From the NCBI GenBank assembly GCA_963844255.1, contig CAWJNP010000035.1:137-64136 (forward strand): a stretch of DNA of 64,000 nucleotides, read 5' to 3'. The notes under the pieces were generated by a model. It was not told the origin of the DNA, did no database searches, and worked only from the letters and a program-made list of their open reading frames with translations. A program made the position numbers and the translations under genes. Position 1 is the first letter of the stretch, and each line of letters begins with the position of its first letter. This document shows, in pieces, positions 1 to 62,206 of this stretch. Source of the stretch: an uncultured beta proteobacterium. Its GTDB lineage: Bacteria > Pseudomonadota > Gammaproteobacteria > Burkholderiales > SG8-39.

Positions 1-45
1 ACGCAGCAGACGCTGCGCGCCGTTCTGCGCCGGCCAGACTCGTAA

Positions 46-63
46 CTGTATCGATATCGATAC
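46..63. promoter_or_regulatory. Perfect 18-bp palindrome TGTATCGATATCGATACA (copy 1 of 2; near-identical to the site at 10011-10028)
   Basis: Read directly from the sequence. The left half TGTATCGAT equals the reverse complement of the right half ATCGATACA. It lies in non-coding DNA 3' of the AstE-like gene and 5' of whatever lies left of the window. Confidence 0.5.
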
Positions 64-132
64 ACAAACTGGCAGGGAACCAGCCTGCAGAGCCGGTTTC
101 GTAAAAACAATCTTAAAGAATCGAGTGCCGGC

Positions 133-1014
133 TCAGGCCGGAAGCGTCATCCGCGTGCCGAAGTAGAACCACTCCCCGCCGGCGTCGGCCGATTCCTTGG
201 GCAGCACGATGTAACCGTCCTCGGGCGCGGCAAGGATCTCACCGCCCTGGAGCCTGGCCATCGCTTCGCCCTTCGCGACCGGATCGAAGTGGCGCCACGG
301 TTTAGCGAAGACCGCACCGGCCTCGCGACGGTAGACGCTCTTCATCCGCACGCAACGCTTCGCGGCGGACGGAACCGAGGCCGCCGCGCTCGCGTCCAGC
401 ATGCCCAGATGCGCCATTGCGCGGAGGATCGCGCGGTAGCCGACATCCGGGGCATCTGCGTTGTGGTGGTTTCCGCATTCGAGCGTGACCGCGAGCGCGC
501 CCCGGGTTCGCGCATATTCGGTCGTGCCCTGCGACTCCTTGCTGCCCTGTCCGTCGCCGAAGGCATCGCTCCAGCCGCAGACGAAGTCGCTCACGCCAAG
601 TGAAGTCCCGAAGGCCAGTTCCTTCGGGTCCTTCGGATCCAGGAAGATGAACGGGCCGCCCTGCGAGGTGTAGGAGTGCAGATCCAGCAGCACGTCGGTC
701 CGGTCCAGAAGATCGCAGACGATGGGGTCGAGGTGGTCTTCGTAGTGGCGCTTCTCGTCCTTCGGGTAGAGGTAGCGGTTCAGGTTGCGTTCCACGAAGC
801 GCACGTTCTGCGCATAGGCTCCGGGGTTGGTCACCGGGACCAGTTGCAGGGTTCCGAGTTTCGGGACGAGCACGCCGGCGTCGATGTCCGCGATCAGGCG
901 GCGGATCGCCTCGGCCCCGCAGCGCTCGTTGCCGTGCACCGCGCCCAGCACCGTGAGGGTGGGGCCGGGTACAAGTGAACGGTAGGTGACGATCCTGATG
1001 CTCATGGCGTCCAT
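133..1014 (-). CDS. Succinylglutamate desuccinylase/aspartoacylase (AstE/AspA) family zinc hydrolase
   Basis: 293-aa ORF with an HGNE-C zinc-binding N-terminal motif, a DLHS motif and a C-terminal His/Glu pattern typical of the AstE_AspA family. Its start codon overlaps the stop of the upstream OMF gene by 13 bp. Confidence 0.7.
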   Translation of the reverse strand: MDAMSIRIVTYRSLVPGPTLTVLGAVHGNERCGAEAIRRLIADIDAGVLVPKLGTLQLVPVTNPGAYAQNVRFVERNLNRYLYPKDEKRHYEDHLDPIVCDLLDRTDVLLDLHSYTSQGGPFIFLDPKDPKELAFGTSLGVSDFVCGWSDAFGDGQGSKESQGTTEYARTRGALAVTLECGNHHNADAPDVGYRAILRAMAHLGMLDASAAASVPSAAKRCVRMKSVYRREAGAVFAKPWRHFDPVAKGEAMARLQGGEILAAPEDGYIVLPKESADAGGEWFYFGTRMTLPA

Positions 1015-9728: not shown

Positions 9729-9992
9729 TCAGTCGCTGACGTAGGGCCGCGCGAGCTTGAGACGCACGCTCAGGCCGACGCGCAGGGCGACGCGCAGCAG
9801 CGCTTCGAGGCTGAATTCCGCGGCGCGGCCGTTCATCAGCAGGTTCAGGCGGGGCCTTGTCAGGCGCAGCATCGCGGCCAGCTGTGTCTGTGTCATTCCT
9901 TCTTCGCCTGCCTGCTCGACGATGTGATCGAGGCGCCCCCTGATCGCGGCAATCGCCTGTTTGCGCAATGCGAGCATCGGGTCTGCAGCCAT
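9729..9992 (-). CDS. XRE-family helix-turn-helix transcriptional regulator (HigA/antitoxin-like, no toxin partner present)
   Basis: 87 aa with an HTH core MTQTQLAAMLRLTRPRLNLLMNGR, the typical C-terminal EALLRVALRVG, and a GRLDHI N-terminal helix. No adjacent RelE/HigB-like ORF was found on either side. Confidence 0.75.
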   Translation of the reverse strand: MAADPMLALRKQAIAAIRGRLDHIVEQAGEEGMTQTQLAAMLRLTRPRLNLLMNGRAAEFSLEALLRVALRVGLSVRLKLARPYVSD

Positions 9993-10010
9993 CCTTCACC
10001 TCCACATGGG

Positions 10011-10028
10011 TTGTATCGATAACGATAC
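10011..10028. promoter_or_regulatory. 18-bp palindrome TGTATCGATAACGATACA (copy 2) in the divergent promoter region between the XRE regulator and the UGSC-selenoprotein gene
   Basis: It differs by one base from the copy at 46-63. It lies 19 bp upstream of the XRE start codon and about 140 bp upstream of the ATG at 10169. Confidence 0.55.
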
Positions 10029-10168
10029 ACTAACTGACACCAAAGTGGCTACAGAAGCGGACTTTGCCAAATAGATTAGTCAGATTCAGGCGGACTGCGG
10101 GTGGTGGCCACGGTGGGCCATCTGCGTGCTAGCATCGCCTGAAACCGGCACCTTCCAGGAGAGCGCAC

Positions 10169-11899
10169 ATGGTCAGCATCGAGTTCTACGATCCTTCCGG
10201 CGGCATCGAGGTCACGCAACCGCACGCCGCGCGCCTGGACACGCTGGCCGGCAAGCGGATCGGCATCGTCACCAACGAGCAATGGCAGGCCTATCGGATG
10301 CTGCCGATGCTGAAAGAGTGGTTCGAACGCGATTTTCCGGACAGCGAAGTGCTGCCGATTGACGCCTTTCCGCAGGGCAACGGGCTGATCGGCGAGCCGG
10401 AGACTGCGCGGCTGGTGCAGGCCTCGGGTGTCGACGCGGTGATCATCGGCAACGCCGCCTGAGGGTCCTGCGCCACAGCGTGCGGCCGTGCTGCCGCACA
10501 CATCGAAGCACTGGGCATCCCCACCGTGACGCTCACGCGGTCGGATTTCGTCGGTGTCATGAAGAATGCCATCTCGGGCCTCGGCCTTGCGCCGGATGCG
10601 GCCATGGTCGAGTTTTCGATCGAGCTGTTCCTGCCCGGCAGCGATATCGGCGCGGTCGAGGCCCGCAGGCATGAGTTCTATGCCGGGCTGACCGGCTGGA
10701 AATCCGTGCTGCAACCCTCGGCTGACGGCGCCGTGCCGATGCTGAGCGTCGCGGGTGCGAGCTACGAAGACGCGCTGGAGCGTGCCAACCACCTGCTGAT
10801 CACCAGCCTGCAGGGCGACGGCCTGCCGCTGTGGCCGGCCACGCGCGAGCGCGTCGAGCGGATCCTCGCAGGCAGCGCGCAGCCGCGCACGCAGCTGCTC
10901 GGCAAGTTTCCGCCGCGCGGCGGGCTCGCCACGGTCGAAACCTGCGCGGTCGCGCTGGCGATGGCGGGAGGGCGGCCCGAATACCTCCCGGTGCTGATCG
11001 CCGCGGTCGAAGCCTTCCTCGATCCGGACACCAACGCCGAGCAGCTGCAGGCGGCCTCGGGCAGCGCGTTCCCCGTGGTCATCGTCAACGGTCCCATCGC
11101 AAAGCAGATCCGCCTGAATTCGGGATTCGGATGCCTCGGGCCCGACCCGCAGCGTCCGGCCGGTGCGAGCATCGGCCGCGCGCTGCGCCTCATACAGCAG
11201 AACGTCGGCGGCGCGCTGCCCGGCATCGGCGCGATGGCCAACTATGGCGGCATGCGCGCCACCAACATGGTGTTCGCCGAGGACGAAGACACTCTTCCCC
11301 CGGGATGGCCCACGCACGCCGCAGAGCGCCACGGATTTGGGCCGGGCGTGAACTCGGTTTCGCTGCTGTTCGCCAACGGTGCGACCAACATCCGGCGGCG
11401 CGGCGCGATGAAGGAAACGCCGGAAGAAGACGCCACCCAGGGCATGCACCGCATGGCCGATTTCATGCGCGTGCCGAACCTCACCAACCTGCAGGGCTGG
11501 GAGCACGGCACGCCCGGGGCGCTGCTGCTGCCCGGGATCGTTGCGCAGAACATGGCCAGGCTGGGCTGGACCAAACCTGCGATGCGCGAATTCTTCTGGA
11601 CGCATTCGCGGATTCCGGCCGCCGAGCTGCGACGCGCGGGCGGCCCGGCGTGGATCGAGATGGACGCGAACCCGGTCACGCGCGCCAGCGTCGCGCTCGA
11701 CCCCTGGCCGCTCACCGCGGTTCCGGAAAACTTCGTGATCGTCGTTGCGGGGGGCGGGCACCCGACCAACAGCTTCTGGCTGCAGGGCTACAGTCCGCGC
11801 GTGACGGGGCGCGAGATCCATCTGCCGAATGGCTACGATCGCCTGCTCGCGCAGGCCGACCGCGACCTGGGCTGCGGATCGGACGCCTGCCTGATCTGA
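10169..11899 (+). CDS. Putative selenoprotein of about 576 aa: an N-terminal domain carrying the U-G-S-C motif (in-frame TGA at 10460-10462 read as selenocysteine) fused to a roughly 480-aa C-terminal region of unknown function
   Basis: The ATG at 10169 has an AGGAGA Shine-Dalgarno 7 nt upstream. The 97-codon ORF ends at TGA, and the next codons in the SAME frame are GGG-TCC-TGC (G-S-C), continuing without a stop to 11899. The downstream part has no independent Shine-Dalgarno at its candidate starts (GTG 10526, ATG 10558). A hairpin with a GU-containing loop lies just downstream of the TGA. Function of the C-terminal region was not recognised. Confidence 0.6.
10480..10499 (+). other. Candidate bacterial SECIS-like hairpin, 18 nt downstream of the in-frame UGA
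   Basis: The stem GTGCGGC/GCCGCAC (7 bp) with a 6-nt loop cGUgcu lies inside the coding sequence. The position and the apical GU are compatible with a bSECIS, though spaced about 6 nt further than in E. coli fdhF. Confidence 0.4.
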
Positions 11900-11900
11900 G

Positions 11901-13314
11901 GTGACGCGCGCGTCCTCCGCCGGCCGTCCCGTCCTCGGCCTGTGCGTGGTCGGGTTGGGCGCCTCGCTGCCGCCGCTGGACCTCGCGGTCAATGTCGCGT
12001 TTCCGGCGATTACCGCCGCATTCAGTCTGGACACACCCGGAATCCGATGGGTGGTGGCCGCCTATGTCGTGAGTTATGCGAGCCTGATGCTTGCGTTCGG
12101 CAGCCTCGGGGACCTCATCGGCTACCGGCGGATCTTTCGCGCGGGACTCGTGCTCGGTGCCGTGGCCTTCGTGCTCTGCGCCCTTGCGCCCGACTACGCC
12201 TGGCTGCTTGCGGCACGCACGGTGCAGGGCGTCGCCGCCGCGCTGCTCCTGAGTTGCGCGCCCGCGCTGGCGACTTCGCTGTTCGAGGAGAGTCGCCGGA
12301 TCTGGGTGCTCGGCGCGTATTCGAGCATGGCCGCCGCGGCCGGTGTGGTCGCGCCCTTGCTCGGCGGCGCCAGCATCGCGGTGTTCGGCTGGGCGGGGGT
12401 GTTCTGGTTTCGCGTGCCGATTGCCCTGCTAGCCCTGCTCCTGCTGCCCGCATTGCCGGTGCTGCCGCATGCCGGGCATCCGCTGGCGGCGCGCAGGTTC
12501 GATGCCGCCGGCGCGTCCCTGCTGGGTGCGGGCATCGCCATGCTGCTGCTGGCCCCGATGCTGGTGCAGGCGGCCGAAGCGCCATGGCTTGCGTTTTCGG
12601 CCGCCGCCGCGGGTACGTTCCTGTTCGCCGGGTTCCTGCGCCACCAGCGCCGTGCCGCGCAGACCGTGCTGCCGCTTGCGTTGCTACGCGATTCCGGCTT
12701 CGTGTTCCTCAATCTGGTCAGCAGCGCGGTACATTTCTGCGGCTTTACGGTTCCGCTGATCGTGCCTTACTACCTGACCCGCATCTCGGGCTACGGTCCG
12801 CTGGATGCGGGTGGCGTGCTGACGGCGTGGCCGCTCGGCATGCTGGCCGGTTCGGCGCTCGGTGCGCCGGCGGCGCGCGCGTTCGGGCGCGGGCGCACCG
12901 CGCTGATCGGTGGCGGGTTGCTGGTCATCGGCCTGGTCGCCATCGGGTTCTGGCCGGCGGCGCTGGCCGCGCTGCCCATGCTGCCGGGCCTGTTCCTGCA
13001 TGGCGCGGGAATCGGCCTGTTCCAGGTGGCCTATACCGACATGGTGATTGCGATGCTGCCGCAGCATGACGCGCGGCGTGGCCGGCAGCCTGACGATCCT
13101 CACGCGCACCGTCGGCATCATGCTCGGTGCGGCAGGACTGAGCGCGGCGCTGCAACTTTCCGAGGCGGGGTATCTCACCGCGGGACGCGCCGCGCCGGAG
13201 GCGTTTCTTGCCGCGTTCCAGTCGGTGTTCCAGTATGCCGCGGCCGGATTCGCAATCCTGCTGGCACTCAGCTGCCTGCACCGCCGCGTCTGGGTCGATG
13301 CGCGTGGCGATTGA
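11901..13314 (+). CDS. MFS transporter (12-14 TM, DHA-like); apparent frameshift near 13065-13075
   Basis: The GTG start overlaps the selenoprotein stop. The TM-rich MFS signature runs up to MLPQHD in frame 0. The conserved continuation RGVAGSLTILTRTVGIMLGAAGLSAAL is in the +1 frame (ORF 13048..13314). Confidence 0.8.
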
Positions 13315-14179
13315 TCAGCCGCCCTGGCTGCGTATCTCCGTCAGAACCGGCCGCAGGTAGTCGAGGAAGGCTTCCGGATTCTCGCTCATCGGGAAATGGC
13401 CCAGCCCCTTCATGATCGTGACCTTCGCGCCCTTGATGAGGGCCGCAGCGGCCTCGGTGTCCCTCGGTGAGGCCGAGTAGTCGTACTCGCCGGTCAGCAT
13501 GTAGAGCGGACACACCGTGGTGTCGATCGCGCCGATGCGCGCCCGGATGTCGCCTTCCACCTGATAGAAGAAGAGATCCCCGGTGAACACGCCCGGCCCG
13601 CCCTGCATGTAGTGCCAGACCGTCTCCCATCGATGCGCCTCGGGGCTCAACGGCGACATCAGCCCGTAGGCGACCGCGCCGCAGGCCTGCCCGCCATGCA
13701 CCTCGGCATGATTCAGCCAGGCCGATTCGTAGTAGCGCTCGACATAGGCCGCTGACTGCAGCCCGACCAGGGCACGCAGTTCGGAAGCGTGTTCGAGGGC
13801 CAGGTTGAGCACGATGCGACCGCCGATCGAGCAGCCCATCACGACCGGGCGATCCTTGCCGTGCAGGCCGAGCGCCTTCGCGACCGCCATGATCTGGCGC
13901 GTATAGCTTTCGGTGGTGAGCCGGTAGTCGTCCTTTTCCCAGCCCTCGGGCGGCGAGGACTTGCCGTGCCAGGGCATGTCGAATGCGATGACGCGATAGT
14001 GACGGGTGATCTCCGGGTCGTTCAGCACCGCGCGGAACTGGCGGCTGTCGGAGCCCGCAGTGTGCAGGCAGAGCGAGCGGGATGCCTTGTCCGGCTTCCT
14101 CGAAATACAGGCGATGCGGCTTGCCATCGAGTTCCATGTGCACGTAGCGGCCGGTGACGTTCTCCAGACGGGCAGTCAT
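13315..14179 (-). CDS. Alpha/beta-fold hydrolase (GCSIGG nucleophile elbow); apparent frameshift near 14085
   Basis: The N-terminus MTARLENVTGRYVHMELDGKPHRLYFEEAGQGIP is in one frame (start 14179). The remainder LCLHTAGSDSRQF...GCSIGG...H is in the frame of ORF 13315..14127. The stop abuts the MFS stop (TGATCA, no intergenic space). Confidence 0.8.
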
Positions 14180-60159: not shown

Positions 60160-61255
60160 ATGTCAGTATTCAACGACCGCCTGCCTGACCGGCCGGGCAG
60201 CCGCAACTTTTCCCAGTTCCTTCGTCTGGCGCGTTTCCTCTCGCCCTACCGGTTGCGAATCGCCTGCGCGGTGGGCGCGCTGCTTGTCGCCGCGGCCTGC
60301 GTACTTGCGCTTGGCCAGGGCCTGCGTTACGTGATCGATGCGGGATTCGCCGCTGCGAGCCCGGCCGTACTCGACCGCGCGCTGGGAGCGACCATCGGGC
60401 TCGCGGTCGTGCTCTCGCTGTCAACGTACGCGCGTTTCTACCTCATGCTCAGCACGGGAGAGCGAGTGATTGCCGACATACGGCGCGCGGTGTTCGACCA
60501 CCTGCTGCGATTTGCTCCGGGCTATTTCGAAACCGTGCGCACCGGCGAGGTGATTTCCCGCCTCACCAACGACACGACGCTGTTGCAGGCGGTGGTCGGG
60601 TACGGGTTTTCGCTTGCGCTGCGAAACGCGCTCCTGCTTGCGGGTGCGCTCTGCATGCTGGTCTACACGAACTTCAGGCTGACGCTGATCGTGCTGGTGC
60701 TCGGGCCGCTGATCGTGCTGCCGATCGCGGTACTCGGCCGGCGCGTACGGGGCGCTTCGCGCGCAAGCCAGGACCGGGTCGCGGATGTGAGCGCCTTCAT
60801 CGACGAAGCGCTGCACGAGGTGCGCACCGTGCAGGCCTACGTGCATGAAGATGCGACCCGCCGCGCGTTTGCCGCGCACGTGGAGGCGGCCTACGCGACA
60901 GGCGTGCGCCGGATCGGCCAGTCTGCGCTGCTGGTCGGGTTGATCATGCTGATCGTATTCGGCGGTGTCGGCGTGATCCTCTGGATGGGAGGGCACGATG
61001 TTCTGGATGGGCGGCTGACCGCCGGCGATCTGTCTGCGTTCGTGTTCTACAGCGCGATCGCCGCGGGTTCCGTCGCAGCCATTTCAGAGGTTCTGTCGGA
61101 CCTGCAGCGCGCGGCCGGTGCGACCGAGCGCCTGGTGGAATTGCTCGAAACCGAGCCGGCGATCAGCGCGCCGGCCCGGCCGGCCGTGCTGCCTGAACTG
61201 GGCGCCGGTGGTGTGGCGTTCGACGCGGTGAGCTTCGCCTATCCGGCGGCGGCCG
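60160..61255 (+). pseudogene. ABC exporter (fused TMD-NBD, MsbA-like), 3'-truncated at the compositional junction
   Basis: 6-TM ABC_membrane domain, then the beginning of the NBD (…VAFDAVSFAYPA). The reading frame then decays into non-ABC sequence and GC content drops. Walker A and everything after it is missing. Confidence 0.75.
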
Positions 61256-61319
61256 GGCACGACTCTCGGCAAGCGAGTTCAGTCGTAAATTGCGGCGCCT
61301 CGGCACTGTCGTGACGTCT

Positions 61320-62206
61320 TGGCCTTTTTCTTCACATTCTTTTCGAATGTTTTTCGCAAGTGTTTCATATTCTCTCTCATACGCTTTTTTCGAAAACACA
61401 ATGAGCCATCGTTGGGTAACTCCCGCATAGGTTTCCTGCACTTCCCGATAGCTGTACCCCTCTTGATCAGATGGAGTGAGGTGTGAGGAATCAGTCTCGA
61501 GTATTCGTTCTCTTGCCTGCCTGATCGTTTCAGGTACTCGTGTCACCCATCTGATGTCTGACATTTGCGAAAGTCCTTCTTTGGTATATAGCGCACTGTC
61601 GGCGACAAAATACGGAAGTCGTTTCGCGCGAAACTGTTTCTTGTATTCTGCAATGCTTTTGTGGAAACTTTTCTTGTCGCTCTCGTTGCCACTTAAGACT
61701 TCCAGCCATACTGGTATCGTACTGCGATGCGCACACATCAATGAGAGAATAACTTGATTGAGCTCTGGATGTTGGTCTTTCGAAAACCCTTTGGTGATGG
61801 ATACGACTTCCGGATCATCTTCGTGTTTTCGTTCCCCACTTACGTCGTACTCTCCATGCAAAGAGAACGTCGTCGAATCCAGATGCACAAAACGATGTTT
61901 GATTCCCGCTGCCGACAATGCTCGACTGCTAACTGAGTAAAATACTTCGGTGATTCCGTTCTCATACAACGCATCCAGCGCAGTCCCCAGACAATCATCA
62001 TGCAAATCTGAAGCCTGAACGCCTTCTGCGATGAGCAACTCAACCGGCCGATTCTCGTAAAACTGGGGTGTCAGATACAACGCTTTATTGCTAAATCCCA
62101 GAGCATTGACGATCATCGCTTTGACCGCCGTTCCCACGCTGATCTTCCTCCCTGGTAAGTTTACAATACGATCAATATTCTCAACGATTCTTGCTTCGTC
62201 ACACAT
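61320..62206 (-). mobile_element. IS4/IS1634-superfamily DDE transposase gene fragment (C-terminus missing; reading frame runs into unrelated GC-rich DNA)
   Basis: About 295 aa of transposase-like sequence (…HLDSTTFSLHGEYD…, DDE-type). The predicted ORF tail RRRNLRLNSLAESRARPPPDRR is translation of the flanking high-GC DNA. A short upstream ORF, MSTYEAKLLQHLGS, in another frame suggests a further frameshift or truncation at the N-terminus. Confidence 0.65.

Follow-up and report, generated by a model that had tools for sequence, protein, structure and literature searches.

The 18-bp palindrome upstream of a gene for an 87-aa XRE-type regulator, found in a 64-kb stretch of DNA from an uncultured Burkholderiales bacterium (the whole stretch is called the window here), is very probably the putative operator of a clade of HTH_37 antitoxins, and the same palindrome heads a dispersed repeat of about 85 nt. 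The explanation preferred here, with a probability of roughly 0.6, takes the palindrome as the clade operator, the XRE protein as an orphan antitoxin, and the operator-headed repeats as elements kept as putative binding sites. According to it, TGTATCG-N4-CGATACA would be the operator of TRPR-type HTH_37 antitoxins, the partners of Gp49/HigB-type toxins, and in plasmid and island operons of Alphaproteobacteria it would lie between the -35 and -10 boxes and overlap the latter. In the Burkholderiales lineage of the window the toxin would have been lost, with the 87-aa XRE protein as a stand-alone descendant, which most likely would bind as a dimer to the palindrome 19 nt from its start codon and repress its own gene. 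In this lineage the palindrome would also head the repeat, which has weak outward -35/-10-like boxes at its AT-rich end and would be present as one copy upstream of each XRE homologue and as many more over the chromosome, mainly in convergent gaps. Copy 1 of the window would then be one of the scattered copies, and copy 2 the copy belonging to the XRE locus. At the scattered sites, candidate effects are a block of read-through, silencing of an outward promoter, and titration of the protein.

The two matching 18-bp palindromes described in the earlier note on this DNA are real, with coordinates one base higher than those first given: copy 1, TGTATCGATATCGATACA, is at 47-64 and copy 2, TGTATCGATAACGATACA, at 10012-10029. 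When as many as two mismatches to TGTATCGNTNNCGATACA were tolerated, only these two palindromes were found in the 64-kb window, and shuffled sequences give an expectation of 0.01. Copy 2 was confirmed to be in the 176-bp divergent region between the XRE gene (ATG at 9992) and the UGSC-family selenoprotein gene (ATG at 10169), 19 nt and 139 nt from the start codons, respectively. A literature search with the palindrome sequences returned no relevant paper. Coordinates of the features are collected in Table 1.

Table 1. Features of the window that are discussed in the text, with positions counted from its first nucleotide
Feature	Position	Strand	Remarks
Open frame	1..45	+	TAA at 43-45; possibly the left neighbour's 3' end, or else non-coding spacer
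Repeat element, copy 1	41..131	+	nhmmer E = 5e-17; fills the gap to the AstE-like stop codon
Palindrome, copy 1	47..64	.	In a gap whose right border is the AstE-like 3' end
Sigma-70-like boxes, copy 1	94..121	+	CGGTTT, 16 nt, AAGAAT; into the AstE-like 3' end; speculative
AstE/AspA-type deacylase gene	133..1014	-	Stop codon abuts element copy 1
XRE gene, 87 aa	9729..9992	-	HTH_37; recognition-helix motif L-T-R-P-R; predicted orphan antitoxin-type DNA-binding protein
Repeat element, copy 2	10008..10100	+	nhmmer E = 2e-19; flank of about 70 nt towards UGSC
Palindrome, copy 2	10012..10029	.	Putative XRE operator, 19 nt upstream of the XRE start codon
Sigma-70-like boxes, copy 2	10058..10086	+	CGGACT, 17 nt, CAGATT; towards UGSC; speculative
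UGSC-family selenoprotein ORF, 576 codons	10169..11899	+	Divergent from XRE; in-frame TGA at 10460-10462
MFS (DHA2-type) transporter	11901..13415	+	Downstream of UGSC

The XRE protein matches Pfam HTH_37 with E = 5e-10, above the gathering score, and its AlphaFold2 model has a mean pLDDT of 86.6. Its nearest solved relative is PDB 2A6C (NE1354), with a sequence E-value of 2.7e-6 and fold TM-scores of 0.70 and 0.80. Homologous proteins are few, with only 19 clusters among 5.8 billion. The proposal that the protein is HigA-like and has no toxin partner on either side was borne out by the HTH_37 match, by the spacing of the genes and by a negative tblastn search. There is no room for a toxin gene beside the XRE gene, because just 19 nt separate the palindrome from its start codon, and its stop codon is 12 nt from the stop codon of prc. 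No match was obtained when the Bosea toxin (see below) was compared to the window by tblastn, and no toxin gene was seen at the XRE homologue loci inspected. In the alignment, the XRE lineage is without about 11-14 N-terminal positions found in its toxin-linked relatives. From these sequence comparisons we infer that the XRE protein is an orphan antitoxin, which would regulate its own gene. No convincing sigma-70 promoter was recognized for the XRE gene in consensus and weight-matrix scans; a speculative candidate is TAGCCA and TATCGT separated by 18 nt, with TATCGT inside the palindrome.

Contigs with XRE homologues (54-100% identical) were chosen through their proteins, so that no DNA motif entered the selection. 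In all XRE homologues examined, from seven independent lineages and with 54-100% identity, the palindrome is located about 19-21 nt upstream of the start codon. Its arms are identical to those of the window at 14 of 14 positions in three loci (L006, L038, and L014), at 13 of 14 in two (L107 and L109), and at 12 of 14 in one (L002), while flank identity in the same comparisons goes down to 45-78%. About eight loci provide arm comparisons that are free of motif selection.

The same palindrome is met in promoters of toxin-antitoxin operons. When 185,579 species genomes were scanned with the palindrome only, the matches listed were mostly chance ones. However, three alphaproteobacterial loci in the list, from Aminobacter (L022), Bosea (L082), and an uncultured alphaproteobacterium (L080), have an HTH_37 homologue (37-43% identity) a few hundred bases from the palindrome. 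At all three, 9-10 nt separate the palindrome from the ATG of a gene for a Gp49 (HigB/RelE-fold) toxin, followed by the gene of a 98-aa HTH_37 antitoxin. The palindrome is preceded by -35-like boxes (TCGACA/TAGCCA/TTGCCA) and overlaps -10-like boxes (TACATT/TACAGT/TACAAT), and this placement in the predicted promoters is the classic position of a repressing operator. Plasmid operons of Mesorhizobium and Sphingomonas with TRPR-type antitoxins have TGTATCA-N4-CGATACA at the same place, so that the palindrome is found inside the core promoter of toxin-antitoxin operons in five Alphaproteobacteria. In a third TRPR-type operon, on Sphingobium pUT1, one recognisable half-site only is present, and the palindromes of TQPR-type relatives from Xanthomonas and Pseudomonas differ. 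Taken together, the position kept upstream of the homologues and the promoter palindrome of the toxin-linked relatives point to the palindrome as the operator of this antitoxin clade, and the earlier assignment of it to the XRE protein is very likely correct. As a separate observation, L080 (1-402) has the palindrome and an intact antitoxin gene, with the toxin reduced to about 35 codons, of which residues 44-69 still match; it is a plausible intermediate on the way to an orphan antitoxin.

The sequence similarity of the two window palindromes extends rightward, which had been overlooked before. The repeat unit of about 85 nt has the palindrome as its head and a flank of 60-70 nt with conserved blocks in the order CaAACTg.C, aAGCcGCTcCaG, a G-containing -35-like box, and an AT-rich end (aA.taAAT.Tt...aAtTt); the blocks next to the palindrome can also be written as CAAACTG.C followed by AGCCGCTCCAG. 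Such a flank exceeds the needs of a simple operator. Both elements of the window have the same orientation, and no degenerate copies besides them were detected over the 64-kb window with the nhmmer profile of the repeat. The alignment of the repeat comprises 43 non-redundant elements with a mean pairwise flank identity of 50%. With the profile, the unit was recognized upstream of every XRE homologue, down to 54% identity, and no element was recognized in the alphaproteobacterial toxin-antitoxin loci and viral contigs. A metagenome scan with the palindrome plus the first flank block yielded 16 contigs with full elements, none of which adjoins an XRE gene.

The MAG of Burkholderiales bacterium Co_metawrap_2003 (JBBQVP01), with an XRE locus 83% identical in DNA to that of the window, holds 17 of the 74 loci among the matches listed in the palindrome scan. 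At least 20 elements were counted in this MAG, namely 16 exact-palindrome sites, three elements in contig L060, and one in contig L128. The three extra copies of L060 have imperfect palindromes and were found with the repeat profile; the element of L128 has one arm mismatch and was found via a neighbouring gene. Most of the scattered copies were found through the exact-palindrome scan, so their perfect arms are partly due to the search; the copies seen decaying are in L129, L060 (three copies), and L128. The earlier note had named a palindrome common over the genome and unrelated to promoters as the result that would speak against its regulon, and in the closest available genome the search gave essentially this, with tens of copies off promoters.

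Placement was counted for the 24 elements with both neighbours known within 150 nt. Fifteen (62%) are in convergent gaps, five to six are co-directional, and three divergent; the probability of 15 or more convergent gaps in 24 is 1e-4 against an expectation of 25%. Typically the palindrome is 4-20 nt past the stop codon of one gene, and 46-71 nt separate it from that of the other, so the element fills the gap, bounded closely by stop codons on both sides. The neighbours have unrelated functions: RNase D, a response regulator, a TIM-barrel enzyme, a methyltransferase, acyl carrier protein, a desaturase, a cupin, a GNAT acetyltransferase, and uracil-DNA glycosylase. Since arms stay intact as flanks drift, the scattered copies are most likely maintained as putative binding sites of the XRE protein, and would not be promoters of a coherent regulon.

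Two contigs have a special arrangement of elements. In L060 (JBBQVP010000178.1, 1-8000), four elements in one orientation are present within 8 kb, each preceded by about 120 nt of the galE 3' end as a repeated fragment, and they separate toxin-antitoxin modules (MntA/HepT, HI1420-type antidote, Phd, and HigB/HigA). The contig looks like a toxin-antitoxin island formed by repeated recombination at one site. Elements bracket toxin-antitoxin cassettes in L115 as well. Both contigs hint at recombination events in or close to the elements, but neither a recombinase nor a signature of insertion was detected there. In L115 (5197-8073), an ORF of 958 aa lies beside a DUF6036 nucleotidyltransferase module and two repeat elements, and by eye it looks like a Cas3-type HD nuclease-helicase.

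Copy 1 fills an 87-bp gap between the end of a short open frame (45) and the stop codon of the AstE-like gene (133). The source contig reaches at most 136 nt to the left of the window, and the gene on that side was checked via the orthologous contig L127, which encodes an AstE protein of 89% identity and carries the same element, with 14 of 14 arm positions and 41 of 60 flank positions (68%) identical. To the left of the element, L127 has a FadB-like gene, and 30 nt of spacer lie between the end of that gene and the palindrome. Copy 1 was formerly taken as a promoter site of an unseen gene to the left, a reading that is not upheld, as the copy sits between convergent gene ends and the left gene of the orthologue ends there. 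In the sister MAG (L128, 3874-4537), genes for a WXXGXW-repeat protein and an MscS channel flank the element between the AstE and FadB blocks, and in the window lineage the element occupies this junction alone, without the two genes. At the same junction of a more distant relative the palindrome has decayed. Exact-sequence look-ups of the AstE-like ORF (293-aa call and 290-aa form P0020) and of NodT returned no record.

On the other side of copy 2, the UGSC ORF has an in-frame TGA followed by G-S-C and is matched by Pfam UGSC (E = 7e-19), with the NCBIfam UGSC_fam score below its cut-off. Split gene calls of this ORF (97 aa and 446 aa) recur in orthologous contigs. A 7-bp hairpin, GTGCGGC...GCCGCAC, starts 17 nt past the TGA (10460-10510) and could be a SECIS element; its z-score is +1.0, and its energy is not unusual for the G+C content. 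Further lineages, with XRE identities of 67-100%, also have the XRE and UGSC genes as a divergent pair; one of them, L109, has another gene in place of prc. The UGSC gene is missing from L107, where palindrome and flank are present, and the corresponding neighbour in L014 is of xanthine-dehydrogenase type. Across the loci the distance from the palindrome to the UGSC start codon varies from 97 to 189 nt, and a single promoter-like site faces the UGSC operon, with the centre of the copy 2 palindrome about 72 nt upstream of it. Control of this operon by the XRE protein is possible. The downstream MFS gene has a 1-nt insertion near 13068 in comparison with the 99.85% identical metagenome contig L001, and its C-terminal part continues in another frame (ORF 13048-13314); it is either a pseudogene or a sequencing error. 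At the right end of the window, an ABC transporter gene (60160-61314) is reduced to its membrane domain and cut by a transposase ORF on the minus strand (61163-62206, DUF4277 and DDE_Tnp_1), and beyond about 62.2 kb the G+C content is 39%, against about 65% elsewhere in the window. This end looks like an IS element with foreign DNA.

The flank was also searched for known signals. A sigma-70 weight-matrix scan revealed an outward-facing site in fixed register relative to the palindrome (-35 box at +46, -10 box at +69). In 17 of the 43 elements no other site scores higher, and in both window copies it is weak; in a stricter consensus scan the boxes of copy 2 were not reported, and the AAGAAT box of copy 1 is conserved in L127. 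In convergent gaps, such an outward site would fire antisense into the neighbouring gene, a speculative lead drawn from box positions. A sigma-54 promoter in the CTGGAGCGGC block was dismissed by eye, as the GG/GC spacing does not fit. An integron attC site does not agree with the bases beside the palindrome (GTTTG and CAAAC), which by eye misfit GTTRRRY, nor with the lack of a whole-element hairpin. A dif site and the ends of Tn7, Mu, and Tn402, compared by eye, gave no fit. A phage origin of the element was discarded because the 18 viral contigs with the palindrome have it bare, in low-GC DNA, and none has the flank; for a plasmid origin of the flank, blastn gave no match.

Three other explanations were weighed against the preferred one. 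It is unlikely that the unit is a selfish, non-autonomous MITE- or REP-like element, with a palindrome that binds some transposase and a copy at the XRE locus that is a mere insertion. Such an element would explain why dispersed copies abut stop codons on both sides and are strongly enriched in "safe" convergent gaps, why adjoining gene content varies between relatives (the MscS and WXXGXW genes of L128), and why copies bracket toxin-antitoxin cassettes and repeated galE 3' fragments (L060 and L115); many copies per genome (at least 20 in one MAG), in gaps and mostly at gene 3' ends, are also REP/BIME-like. Against it, terminal inverted repeats of a MITE are absent, the palindrome end and the AT-rich end being dissimilar, no target-site duplication or transposase was found at the elements, and no empty site among the recovered loci; no RAYT was seen in the 8-kb loci inspected. 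The copies are old, as their flank identity indicates, and vertically inherited at orthologous sites with intact arms, so that host-level selection is needed to explain them, not recent transposition. Moreover, related antitoxins have this palindrome, with no flank, in their promoters, and every XRE homologue, down to 54% identity, is preceded by the element. The least probable reading makes the elements RNA or DNA signals connected with transcription (for instance a small-RNA family, terminators working in both directions, or hairpins that stabilise 3'-UTRs), with the palindrome as an RNA hairpin. Elements do follow stop codons directly, the palindrome can form a 7-bp hairpin, and the terminator scan flagged one weak, terminator-like hairpin in copy 1, with nothing at copy 2. 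However, there is no U-tract on either strand and no consistent hairpin across copies, which speaks against an intrinsic terminator; hairpins in the flank have z-scores close to 0, and in a helix test with 43 elements the pairing rate was 37%, compared to 19-32% in shifted controls. RNAalifold on 25 elements recovered only the palindrome hairpin with no covariation, and the pairs of the palindrome never vary, the arms being conserved as sequence and not merely as pairs. An Rfam search of the element had no match at the gathering score or at E <= 1.

The small regulon proposed in the earlier note, in which the XRE protein is a dedicated repressor of its own gene, of the UGSC-MFS operon, and of the gene on the left, with the palindromes as promoter operators, is very unlikely. 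The palindrome in the XRE-UGSC divergent region agrees with it, and so does the conserved pairing of the two genes in several lineages, even where prc is replaced. However, copy 1 lies between gene ends and not in a promoter, L107 and L014 keep the palindrome without a UGSC neighbour, and the palindrome, at its variable distance from the UGSC start, overlaps no promoter-like site facing UGSC. The palindromes do not mark a small dedicated regulon, because each heads a repeat of about 85 nt scattered between the ends of unrelated genes, mostly convergent, with at least 20 copies in the sister genome. Within the preferred reading, in which the scattered repeats carry putative binding sites of the orphan antitoxin, a role can be proposed tentatively: the protein may be kept as the DNA-binding partner of operator-bearing repeats at tens of sites over the chromosome, mostly in convergent gaps, and could act there as a roadblock or insulator, or as a repressor of antisense promoters.

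Orphan antitoxins are frequent in annotated genomes, but few have been linked to a particular DNA site. For the present one, comparative genomics suggests a specific pairing between the T-R-P-R recognition helix and TGTATCG-N4-CGATACA. The sites beyond the XRE promoter are in a repeat and mainly where promoters are unexpected, unlike the usual moonlighting of antitoxins. If the XRE protein occupies them, the system could be a model for the insulation of convergent genes, or for a repeat that spreads and fixes the sites of a regulator; the repeat family would in that case be an example, seldom met in bacteria, of a transcription-factor site that a repeat has dispersed and selection has since retained. 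A regulon should not be deduced from two matching palindromes in one window without a genome-wide count.

Among known systems, REP/BIME/RIP and ERIC repeats of enterobacteria and Correia repeats of Neisseria are 35-150 bp long, have many copies, and typically occupy transcribed gaps at gene ends, and some of them carry protein-binding sites (IHF, gyrase) or outward promoters. The window repeat differs from them in having no overall hairpin, no terminal inverted repeats, and no RAYT or other transposase found; its core is a perfect 18-bp palindrome matching the putative operator of an antitoxin clade, and its copies are apparently in the tens, not hundreds. The closest solved protein by sequence and fold, NE1354 of Nitrosomonas europaea (PDB 2A6C), is an uncharacterised HTH_37 protein with T-Q-P-R in its recognition helix, in place of the T-R-P-R of the window protein. 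The Gp49/HigB2 and HTH_37 (HigA2) operons of Bosea (L082), Aminobacter (L022), Mesorhizobium (L130), and Sphingomonas (L133) share with the window the HTH_37 domain, the T-R-P-R motif, and TGTATC(G/A)-N4-CGATACA just upstream of the first gene. In contrast to these operons, the window has no toxin gene, the N-terminus of its XRE protein is shorter by about 11-14 residues, and its palindrome is 19 nt from the XRE start, whereas theirs overlaps a leaderless-type promoter; the flank of 60-70 nt accompanies the palindrome of the window and not those of the alphaproteobacterial toxin-antitoxin loci. MqsA of E. coli is an antitoxin with an operator-like palindrome also upstream of rpoS and csgD (PMC4803016). 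As with the XRE protein, an antitoxin-type HTH protein is concerned whose palindrome recurs elsewhere in the chromosome, and regulation beyond its own operon was proposed (PMC4803016). However, MqsA keeps its toxin, and its extra sites are few and in promoters, whereas the sites described here are in a long repeat and mainly at convergent gene ends. A putative antitoxin operator heading a conserved dispersed repeat sets this lineage apart from the Gp49/HTH_37 operons, from MqsA, and from the REP, ERIC, and Correia repeats alike.
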